Shown: positions 5 through 14,576 of the stretch, piece by piece | Position numbering within the stretch: the first letter of the stretch is position 1 | Layout of the letters: the number at the start of each line of letters is the position of its first letter | Virus record (IMG/VR): IMGVR_UViG_3300043409_001462 | Coordinates: 109,385-173,384 of that record | Source: a virus | Length of the DNA: 64,000 nt | Reading direction: 5' to 3' (one strand) | Translations under genes and position numbers: made by a program | Notes under the pieces: model-generated | What the model was told of the DNA's origin: nothing | The model's input: the letters and a program-made list of their open reading frames with translations, nothing else | Databases searched by the model: none

Positions 5-80
5 GGACCATTAGCTCAGCTGGTAGAGCAGGAGACTCTTAATCTCTTTGTCGCAGGTTCGATCCCTGCATGGTTCACCA
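5..80 (+). tRNA. tRNA-Lys(CTT)
   Basis: Full cloverleaf, anticodon loop CTCTTAA, TTCGATC T-loop, encoded CCA. Confidence 0.95.
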
Positions 81-1357: not shown

Positions 1358-1432
1358 GGTGCCTGAGTAGGACGGTAATGCGCAGGTCTGCAAAACCTTG
1401 AGAACCCAGTTCAACTCTGGGAGGCACCTCCA
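1358..1432 (+). tRNA. tRNA-Cys(GCA)
   Basis: Loop CTGCAAA, U73, CCA. Confidence 0.92.
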
Positions 1433-10949: not shown

Positions 10950-11894
10950 ATGACAACTAATATTCGCTGGGTTATCGCCCATGAACCAGTAGATCTTTTC
11001 CTTAAGGTTGCTGATTCTTTTTCTAAGGAAGTAAACGAACAGACTAACGGTAAGTTCAATATCGAAGTTCTTTCGCTTACTGATTATTCTAAGAAGTATA
11101 ATGGTGGCAAGAAGGTATCTAAGAACGATCTTATGAACCTTATTGATACTGGCGCTATCGAAATGAGCCATATCTACACTACTTGGCTTGCAGACTACAA
11201 CAAGGACCTTCATGCCCTTGATCTTCCATTCCTATTCAAGGATCATGATCACGCTGACCGTGTTCTTGAAGGCGATCTTGGCAAGTCATTGCTTGCTGAC
11301 GTTTCTAAGACTTCCAACATCAAGGCAATGAGCTTCACTTACTCTGGCGGTTATCGTATCGTTCCTGCGAACTTCGCAGCTGATACTGTATCTGCATGGG
11401 AAGGTAAGGTAGTTCGTACTAGCCGTTCTCCAGTTGCTGTTGATACATTCAAGCTTCTTGGTGCAACTCCTCGTGCAGACATTGAACTTGAAGAAATGAA
11501 CTCTGCTGCTGACGCTGGCGTTATCGCTGCTGGCGAATCAACATATGTTCGTGTGTTCCCACTCGAGCAGAATAAGAGCTTCGAAGTTGTTAACGATACA
11601 GCTCATAGCTTGTTCCTAACTTCAATCATCGTGAACCAGGATTTCTTCAAGCAGTTCGATGCTGAAACACAGGAAATCTTTGCTAACGCTGCATTCAACG
11701 CTGCTCGTAAGGAGCGTCGTGAGTCTGTTGCTGATATTCCAAACATCCTTGCTCAGTGCGAAGCTACTGGCGTTAAGGTTGTTAAGATGTCTGAAACTGA
11801 AGCAGGCAAGTTCAAGGCAATCACATCTAAGGTTTATGAGATGTACGCTGACTACTTCACTCCAGGTCTTGTGCGCAAGCTCCAGGTTGCTTAA
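10950..11894 (+). CDS. dctP: TRAP-type solute-binding protein (DctP family), no signal peptide
   Basis: FSKEVNEQTNGKFNIEV, LDLPFLFKDHDHA, GKVVRT, FKLLGATP, AGE, N-D-T-A-H; N-terminus begins at the first strand. Confidence 0.8.
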   Translation: MTTNIRWVIAHEPVDLFLKVADSFSKEVNEQTNGKFNIEVLSLTDYSKKYNGGKKVSKNDLMNLIDTGAIEMSHIYTTWLADYNKDLHALDLPFLFKDHDHADRVLEGDLGKSLLADVSKTSNIKAMSFTYSGGYRIVPANFAADTVSAWEGKVVRTSRSPVAVDTFKLLGATPRADIELEEMNSAADAGVIAAGESTYVRVFPLEQNKSFEVVNDTAHSLFLTSIIVNQDFFKQFDAETQEIFANAAFNAARKERRESVADIPNILAQCEATGVKVVKMSETEAGKFKAITSKVYEMYADYFTPGLVRKLQVA

Positions 11895-13258: not shown

Positions 13259-13474
13259 ATGACCCGTCATAATCCCCGCCTCGTACCCGAGTTCCTCGCC
13301 CGATACCCCTCCGTAGACGGCTATACTCTCATCTGTGTCTGTGAGGAAATCAATCGCCGTACTCAAGCTGGAGTTGGCGTACAGGGTATCCTAACTCAAG
13401 CTCTGCTTTTAGACAACGCTGGTCAATACCTAGCTCGAGTCTGTGAGTCACTTCAAGCCCAACAAAGTGCTTGA
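13259..13474 (+). CDS. Hypothetical early protein
   Basis: AAGGAG RBS, downstream of early promoter. Confidence 0.65.
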   Translation: MTRHNPRLVPEFLARYPSVDGYTLICVCEEINRRTQAGVGVQGILTQALLLDNAGQYLARVCESLQAQQSA

Positions 13475-13499
13475 CGAGTTTCGCGAATTACGCTATAAT
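13471..13499 (+). promoter_or_regulatory. Early promoter
   Basis: AGTGC-TTGACG-17-TATAAT. Confidence 0.8.
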
Positions 13500-13791: not shown

Positions 13792-14073
13792 ATGAAACTC
13801 GACGATTATGATTTTGATATGACTGCCAAGGCTGTGTTCGCGATGAACCCTTCGGCTCCCCAAAATTACGATACCTGGGAGGACCTGAAGTCCTTCATGG
13901 TTTCCATGGCGTACACCTACGGTCACAAGACCAACTCTTTCAGCACCAGTGGATTCCAGCTGACTTTCTTTCCGAGCTCTAATGACACAGATATTAGCTG
14001 TCGTTCGTCTGTTTCGTCTTTTGTTGCGCTTGAGTATGTGAAGCGTATGACCCTCGTCAAGGAGAATGCATAA
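13792..14073 (+). CDS. Hypothetical early protein
   Basis: GAGGAG RBS before ATG 13792. Confidence 0.75.
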   Translation: MKLDDYDFDMTAKAVFAMNPSAPQNYDTWEDLKSFMVSMAYTYGHKTNSFSTSGFQLTFFPSSNDTDISCRSSVSSFVALEYVKRMTLVKENA

Positions 14074-14258
14074 TGTTTATCGCAAAACCCAACCTGAATA
14101 ACTCACTCGGTCAAAAGACTTTCTCCGATATGGAGGCGGCTGTTACCTACCTCGAGGAAGCCACTGGTTACAAGATGGATTTTGTTACCGACAAGCGTAC
14201 GAAGGAGCGCACTTATGACTGGGAAATCATCGGCAAACTCAAGCGTGTCAAAGCGTAA
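14073..14258 (+). CDS. Hypothetical protein
   Basis: AAGGAG RBS, TAATG coupling. Confidence 0.7.
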   Translation: MFIAKPNLNNSLGQKTFSDMEAAVTYLEEATGYKMDFVTDKRTKERTYDWEIIGKLKRVKA

Positions 14259-14364
14259 CCCATTCGCACATGAGCTTAACGATGCAAAGTTTCGGTTGCG
14301 CATCGTTAAGCCACGTAAGGGCAAAGGTTCTTATTCTCGCAAGGAGTCAAAATTATGGGTATGA
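14245..14364 (+). CDS. ArfA-like alternative ribosome-rescue peptide (39 aa)
   Basis: NPFAHELNDAKFRLRIVKPRKGKGSYSRK resembles the ArfA core; start (GTG 14245) uncertain. Confidence 0.7.
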   Translation: MSKRNPFAHELNDAKFRLRIVKPRKGKGSYSRKESKLWV

Positions 14365-14540
14365 TGAAAGAACGCTATATGGATATCGTTGATTACGCCG
14401 AAGAGTGCTGTGGTGGTACGCTTCAACATGATGAAGCTTGGAAGATGTTTCAGATGGTTTATCCTGACGAAGGCGAGATTTTCGAAGAAGCTTGGAACAA
14501 CTGGGATTCTTTTTCTGAATATATTCTAACACATCATTAA
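14355..14540 (+). CDS. Hypothetical acidic protein
   Basis: AAGGAG RBS. Confidence 0.7.
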   Translation: MGMMKERYMDIVDYAEECCGGTLQHDEAWKMFQMVYPDEGEIFEEAWNNWDSFSEYILTHH

Positions 14541-14547
14541 AAAGTGC

Positions 14548-14576
14548 TTGACTTATCTCTAAATATTAAGTATAAT
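14548..14576 (+). promoter_or_regulatory. Early promoter
   Basis: AGTGC-TTGACT-17-TATAAT. Confidence 0.8.

Follow-up and report, generated by a model that had tools for sequence, protein, structure and literature searches.

ArfA is a back-up factor with which bacteria free ribosomes stuck on broken messages, and it has been regarded as belonging to the Gammaproteobacteria and part of the Betaproteobacteria and as being induced only upon failure of tmRNA. In the Escherichia coli protein (YhdL; Pfam PF03889; PDB 5MGP, 5MDV, 5U4I, and 5H5U), which is our named comparison system, F25 and residues Q27–E30 dock domains II and IV of RF2. Cryo-EM finds 46–48 residues of E. coli ArfA ordered, a 40-residue truncation is inactive, and the last 17–18 codons of the gene serve regulation only (PMC8012679). 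[quoted passage not shown] The hydrophobic contacts of F25 explain the specificity for RF2, the variant A18T binds and recruits RF2 with its activation blocked by steric hindrance, ArfA–RF2 pairs show low cross-species compatibility, and ArfA acts only with at most ~3 nt of mRNA past the P site (PMC8012679). BrfA (Bacillus subtilis YqkK), an RF2-dependent adaptor that follows the same principle, is likewise a small basic peptide that places its tail in the mRNA channel and contributes a strand to the sheet of RF2 (PMC8012679).

In phages, ArfA has been mentioned at the level of annotation, for g10 of Citromicrobium phage vB_CbaS-RXM (PMC8953757) and for gp30 of pelagiphage HTVC027P, which is transcribed early and late (PMC12753301); stop-codon design, A18, and tmRNA are absent from both papers. 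Our literature search found no functional study of a phage ArfA, and nothing on phage tmRNA together with ArfA. Like the gene that we describe here, both are small PF03889 ORFs in alphaproteobacterial phages; they are ∼55% or less identical to its product, and they lie in genomes of other types, a 104-kb siphovirus for RXM and a 57-kb pelagiphage for HTVC027P.

The gene belongs to a large freshwater phage known from the 173,384-bp virus record IMGVR_UViG_3300043409_001462. The window is the whole stretch of DNA that was analysed, 64,000 nt long (positions 109,385–173,384 of that record), and coordinates without a prefix refer to it (Table 1). An initial annotation, made from the letters of the sequence, had proposed a hidden ArfA-like ribosome-rescue peptide of 39 residues there, and the interval in question does translate on the plus strand, letter for letter, into that peptide followed by a TGA stop. 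We place the start farther upstream, and the predicted product, of 49 residues, is strongly basic.

Table 1. Features of the phage arfA-like locus and of compared sequences.
Feature	Location	Strand	Remarks
ArfA-family gene	14215..14364	+	49 codons and TGA stop; predicted product P0003, 49 aa
Stop codon of ArfA-family gene	14362..14364	+	TGA
Shine–Dalgarno sequence	14202..14207	+	AAGGAG; 7-nt spacer to ATG 14215
Stretch of the initial annotation	14245..14364	+	Product residues 11–49; GTG 14245 is an internal Val codon
Conserved ArfA core	14287..14343	+	Residues 25–43; aromatic residue and strand, then RKGKGSY-x-R
Inverted repeat	14274..14311		Perfect, 12 bp, 14-nt loop; mid-ORF
Upstream 61-aa gene	14073..14258	+	Last 44 nt overlap the arfA-like gene in another frame
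Downstream 61-aa gene	14355..14540	+	Start overlaps the arfA-like stop by 10 nt; own AAGGAG at 14341–14346
Sigma-70-type promoter-like site	13471..13499	+	TTGACG-17-TATAAT, 11/12; ahead of five-gene block
Next sigma-70-type site	14548..14576	+	Just beyond the five-gene block
Promoter-like sites in the window	12216, 13203, 13471, 14548, 37124, 43275, 54372, 56145, 57986, 62954	+	
Extra tRNA-like match	1358..1429		Rfam; missed by ARAGORN
'tRNA-SeC' (ARAGORN)	G000:C1:109305..109382		Anticodon TCA; three bases ahead of the window, at the head of the tRNA array
Permuted tmRNA, same phage genome	G000:C1:5645..6030 (L073:431..780)		Outside the window
Unannotated ORF of Caulobacter phage Cr30	NC_025422, L074:1453..1605		50 codons; between gp024 and gp023; PF03889 27.2 bits
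ArfA-like ORF, marine group	L008:3016..3189		Terminator L008:3108–3130, 9-bp G+C-rich hairpin and T-run

On sequence grounds, assignment to the ArfA family is sound. Against PF03889, whose curated gathering cut-off is 25.5 bits, the 39-mer scores 36.2 bits (E = 4e-9) and the 49-mer 35.5 bits, so that the likeness proposed at first goes beyond chance; a scan of the whole virus record returns this gene as its single match (34.3 bits). At E ≤ 1 the Pfam scan of the peptide yields ArfA and two weak unrelated families, six ArfA chains are the only matches among PDB chain sequences, and comparison by hhalign of 15 phage with 14 bacterial ArfA-like sequences gives a probability of 98.6% and an E-value of 8e-16 over 36 ungapped columns. 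No relation to BrfA emerged from the Pfam scan (E ≤ 1) or the PDB scan. The peptide has no GGQ motif and, at E ≤ 1, matches neither the ArfB/RF-1 (PF00472) nor the SmpB (PF01668) family. An NCBIfam search with it gave no match, PHROGs gave weak matches to two function-unknown families, phrog_20887 (E = 5e-4) and phrog_37108, and megablast and blastn searches of the region against a phage collection found no related genome, with matches to tRNAs only.

The phage and E. coli proteins align without gaps, phage residue n corresponding to E. coli residue n − 1 across phage 13–44 and E. coli 12–43. Of the 31 aligned E. coli residues from K12 to K42 (PDB alignment), 16 are identical in the phage peptide, and the residues in common comprise N14, D22, F25, R26, R28, and the KGKGSY-x-RK tail. 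Phage residues 35–43 equal E. coli residues 34–42 apart from S41 for M40; R34, K35, G36, K37, G38, S39, Y40, and R42 are invariant in all 15 phage sequences of our alignment A1, and KGKGSY-x-RK, the predicted channel motif, is invariant across the 15 phage and 14 bacterial sequences. The putative counterpart of the RF2-docking F25 is F26, a position occupied by F or Y in 13 of the 15 phage forms, and L28-R29-I30-V31, which align with Q27–E30, would be that of the docking strand. Longer than the inactive 40-residue truncation, the product stops at the position of E. coli residue 48, matching the 46–48 residues ordered on the ribosome; it is essentially the ribosome-ordered part of ArfA, which agrees with the original suggestion that only the active core is encoded.

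Other parts of the peptide resemble E. coli ArfA less. In place of the small residue A18 stands His19; the equivalent position is occupied by K, R, L, or Y in close relatives, by K, R, or H in most phage forms, and by A, S, R, or G in cellular ORFs, and the residue just before it is an invariant Ala in phage forms. Instead of K44–H45, which other phage forms keep, the peptide has S45–K46 and a C-terminal LWV, the W codon of which partly overlaps the start codon of the downstream gene. The N-terminal half counts as diverged because PF03889 aligns over profile positions 19–42 only, that is, over its C-terminal half; the first 12 residues are unrelated to E. coli or any other bacterial ArfA and are missing from most other phage forms. 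A complex prediction with Caulobacter RF2 (RF2_CAUVC) and alignment A1 reached a score of 0.02 against a mark of 0.32, which speaks neither for nor against binding.

In its regulation the phage gene differs from that of E. coli, a 72-codon ORF that is truncated by an internal hairpin and restrained by tmRNA, whereas the phage gene has its own stop codon, as had been noted at the outset. We found no intrinsic terminator inside the ORF and no conserved internal terminator or RNase III hairpin that would betray a hidden non-stop design, and the predicted folding of the region is no more stable than that of shuffled sequence (z = −0.8). The inverted repeat in the middle of the ORF (GCTTAACGATGC / GCATCGTTAAGC) is identical in one of four related IMG/VR contigs (L002), retained at 10 of 12 positions in another (L003), and absent from the remaining two (L004 and L005). 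Synthesis from a non-stop mRNA, tmRNA-repressed as in E. coli, which is a regulatory feature and not a protein feature, was thus rejected given the TGA stop and the lack of a terminator. With its own stop and no conserved internal hairpin or terminator, the gene should be expressed independently of tmRNA, and its design looks like one for unconditional expression.

The putative promoter closest ahead of the five-gene block that holds the arfA-like gene probably drives that block. Sites of the form TTGACN-16..18-TANAAT number 18 on the plus strand (genome positions 86.9–172.3 kb) and 2 on the minus strand, as compared to a shuffled-sequence expectation of ∼1.9 per strand; they probably indicate which genome half host RNA polymerase transcribes. 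The window also encodes a DNA polymerase, a DnaB-like helicase, and a ribonucleotide reductase. Because of these sigma-70-type sites and replication genes, early expression of the arfA-like gene by host RNA polymerase is plausible, and the placing of the gene 'among early genes' by the initial annotation fits its position: it belongs to a group of small genes that follow near-consensus promoters, within the replication (early-type) genome half. The upstream gene's TAA stop and its overlap with the arfA-like gene are conserved in L002–L005. Since a Pfam scan of seven neighbouring ORFs, both 61-aa genes included, gave no family, the operon partners offer no functional clue. In close relatives an outer-membrane beta-barrel gene (PF13505; L078:782–1330, also in L079 and L080) lies ∼1.2 kb upstream of the arfA-like gene, surrounded by small ORFs of unknown function.

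The same genome carries a permuted tmRNA gene with the tag ANDNNASRLALAA, which scores 124.7 bits on the Rfam alpha_tmRNA model (RF01849) and 108.7 bits on tmRNA_permuted and is directly followed by a tRNA-Arg gene. Because this tmRNA is of the alpha type, the phage host is probably an alphaproteobacterium, a setting unlike that of E. coli ArfA. At E ≤ 1, the 173-kb genome gave no match to SmpB (PF01668) or RF-1/ArfB (PF00472) domains. ARAGORN finds 22 tRNA genes in the window and 29 in the whole genome; the 'tRNA-SeC' that it reports could be opal-suppressor-like, given its TCA anticodon, and the arfA-like gene ends in TGA. Alpha-type tmRNAs also occur in two other ArfA-bearing phage records (L075, G001:C1:73782–74089, 123.6 bits; L076, G002:C1:377–709, 108.2 bits), and a further one has an alpha-type match just under the cut-off (L077, G003:C1:32954–33310, 48.9 bits). 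The tmRNA search found none in Caulobacter phage Cr30 or in six further ArfA-bearing records, five of these seven being estimated incomplete. The pairing of ArfA with tmRNA may be a trait of large phages.

A survey with nhmmer found arfA in none of 2,376 alphaproteobacterial genomes, and Alphaproteobacteria mostly lack the gene and rely on ArfB (PMC11633108). In Caulobacter, loss of arfB is lethal in combination with loss of ssrA (PMC4235212). With the PF03889 protein model, 8 of 401 sampled alphaproteobacterial genomes have a match above the cut-off, 3 of the 8 having been seeded into the sample; the family is rare in Alphaproteobacteria, not absent. Several of the alphaproteobacterial ArfA ORFs (L081–L089, L052, L054, L056, L059, and L062) are on megabase contigs, and long variable tails follow their ...RRSKHP.G.

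From the sequence comparisons we consider it reasonably likely that the phage protein acts as ArfA does, by channel sensing, RF2 recruitment, and release, and that it is expressed unconditionally. On a ribosome that has halted at the 3′ end of a truncated message, its RKGKGSY-x-RK tail would move into the vacant mRNA channel, F26 and the strand L28–V31 would dock host RF2, and RF2 would hydrolyse the peptidyl-tRNA, making the ribosome recyclable. The peptide would be made whenever the sigma-70-type promoter is active, not just when trans-translation fails, and together with the alpha-type tmRNA it would raise the ribosome-rescue capacity of the probable alphaproteobacterial host during infection. 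Ribosome binding, RF2 use, expression timing, and benefit to the phage are what we infer. His19 at the A18 position, the replaced KH motif, and the diverged N-terminal half are misfits to ArfA-like action, against which the low cross-species ArfA–RF2 compatibility and the rarity of arfA in the probable host class also count. The rescue had been attributed at first to ribosomes stalled by host defences that cleave mRNA or tRNA; since at most ∼3 nt may extend past the P site, ArfA would help after mRNA cleavage, by phage or host nucleases alike, and not directly after tRNA cleavage, and its action may be directed specifically at such defences or may equally be general ribosome recycling during infection.

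Two of these misfits, His19 and the diverged N-terminal half, would suit a peptide that plugs the channel and does not activate RF2, its KGKGSY tail occupying non-stop ribosomes with no release triggered; such a modulator might divert stalled ribosomes from host SmpB–tmRNA or ArfB, or hold ribosomes. The bulky His19 recalls E. coli A18T, which recruits RF2 and does not activate it, the N-terminal half falls outside the Pfam alignment, and most phage forms, starting 1–3 residues before the NP motif, have no equivalent of E. coli residues 1–11. We nonetheless hold this to be unlikely, as the RF2-docking Phe and strand are conserved among phage forms, and a phage with its own tmRNA would gain little from blocking that tmRNA's substrate. 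Moreover, A18 is not a family invariant, because this position (N+4) is Ser in Pseudomonas, Arg in a Hyphomicrobiaceae MAG, and Gly in a Saprospiraceae MAG among cellular ArfA-like ORFs. We give still less credence to the idea that the peptide, as an adaptor of the ArfA kind fitted to the ribosomes of Alphaproteobacteria, works with RF1, an ArfB-type hydrolase, or some other partner in place of RF2. In favor of such a partner are the probable host class, in which arfA is mostly lacking and ArfB is relied on (PMC11633108), and the divergence of the helix that contacts the RF2 switch loop; yet F25, the basis of RF2 specificity, is conserved as F26, and the phage encodes no RF-1/ArfB-domain protein.

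GTG 14245 lies where most phage ArfA-like ORFs start, and the 39-residue peptide that begins there might on that account be the sole or main product, which we regard as very improbable. This codon is GTA in the four related contigs, which we used as relatives of the locus (L002–L005), and Gly in one metagenome homologue (P0009), so it is not the conserved start, and it has no Shine–Dalgarno sequence ahead of it; we therefore rejected the GTG start of the initial annotation. The conserved start is ATG 14215, 30 nt upstream, and the gene is accordingly predicted to have 49 codons. That ATG and its AAGGAG are kept in all four relatives, in three of which (L002, L003, and L005) it is the sole possible start, and Caulobacter phage Cr30 likewise has an upstream ATG only. 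The genes flanking on both sides also use an AAGGAG signal, and every one of the 10 AAGGAG-N5–9-ATG sites on the plus strand of the window opens an ORF of at least 49 codons. In the ORF list the frame is open from 14182; a start at TTG 14182 (60 aa) was rejected as unconserved, a stop closing the frame 8–9 codons before the ATG in L002 and L005. A programmed frameshift that would fuse the upstream protein to the ArfA frame was judged unlikely because the open window for it is just ∼24–27 nt in L002 and L005 and an independent Shine–Dalgarno sequence and ATG are conserved.

Several observations besides the conserved start indicate that the ORF is a genuine, conserved phage gene. Over the 31 codons free of overlap with either neighbour gene, pairwise dN/dS is 0.06–0.21 in the arfA-like frame and mostly ≥ ∼0.8 in the other two. 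The 16 metagenome homologues (47–50 aa) all start with MTG or MIG; ENA gene calls on related contigs include an ORF of 50 codons that overlaps its upstream neighbour by the same 44 nt and carries a precomputed Pfam ArfA match; and L005 retains the ORF, closed by a TAG stop of its own, even with a different gene downstream. The overlap with both neighbours, part of the original description, is confirmed (Table 1), and 'hidden' is only partly apt, as gene callers find the gene in metagenomes and JGI labels several of the homologues 'stalled ribosome alternative rescue factor ArfA'. A fortuitous overlapping frame without translation, which the shortness of the ORF and its overlaps might suggest and for which the overlapped genes could explain part of the conservation, is close to refuted by substitutions that in the 31 overlap-free codons are overwhelmingly synonymous in the arfA-like frame only, by the Pfam match above cut-off, and by the presence of ArfA-like ORFs with a [PA]RKGKGSY core in at least 63 IMG/VR contigs in unrelated contexts.

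All 15 representative phage ArfA-like ORFs pass the PF03889 cut-off; most are 35–43 aa long with their own stop. A tblastn search with phage ArfA-like peptides matched six cultured phages, five with hosts in the Alphaproteobacteria: Caulobacter Cr30, Citromicrobium RXM, Erythrobacter vB_EliS-L02, Roseobacter CRP-212, Pelagibacter HTVC027P, and Microcystis Mwe-JY26. A longer N-terminus encoded within the upstream gene is found in the clade of the window's gene and in the T4-like phage Cr30, a cultured phage with a genetically tractable host. The Cr30 ORF, unannotated in RefSeq (complement of about 11139–11291 in NC_025422), has the same layout, its N-terminal extension lying inside the end of the upstream gene (gp024, 53-nt overlap) and its own stop terminating it, with an ATGA overlap to the next gene (gp023). 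It is 57% identical over the core, and differs in having KGKGSF and not KGKGSY, a shorter tail (5 residues past the aromatic residue), and no obvious Shine–Dalgarno sequence. Two genes downstream of it is an RNA ligase gene.

A marine IMG/VR group (L008–L029) shares with our gene the core NPVA..FR..IVKPRKGKGSY and its location in phages, but its ORFs contain an intrinsic terminator immediately behind the core, a non-stop design of the E. coli type, where the window's gene has a true stop. Behind the terminator the tails of this group vary in sequence and in length (56 to 114 codons). Among gammaproteobacterial ArfA ORFs (L057, L063–L065, and L067–L072; Halomonas, Vreelandella, Pseudomonas, and Stutzerimonas), many end in ...AA before the stop (e.g. 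RQAA, FMAA, and LLAA), resembling the end of the ssrA tag; this ending may be a built-in degradation signal on the full-length ArfA product.

More tentatively, and with doubt outweighing confidence, the permuted tmRNA and the stop-bearing ArfA might form a two-part kit of large alphaproteobacterial phages. The ArfA would escape tmRNA control and bring RF2-dependent rescue to hosts in which arfA is rare, ribosomes would be freed when phage nucleases or host defences cut messages, and the basic residue at the A18 position would reflect a phage-specific engagement of RF2.

The gene described here adds to a known type; its value is limited because the Pfam and JGI pipelines already assign the family and two phage genome papers mention ArfA. 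The interest lies mainly in the pairing with tmRNA, the alphaproteobacterial setting, and Cr30 as a ready test system: this ArfA appears to be built for unconditional expression in a genome that also carries tmRNA, its relatives are mostly in alphaproteobacterial phages, whose host class rarely has arfA, and Cr30, with its unannotated copy of the same layout, opens the question to experiments in a standard laboratory system. Should the peptide prove active, it and its relatives would provide natural ArfA variants with a bulky position 18 for studying RF2 activation, and phages would be deliberately topping up ribosome rescue as a resource.
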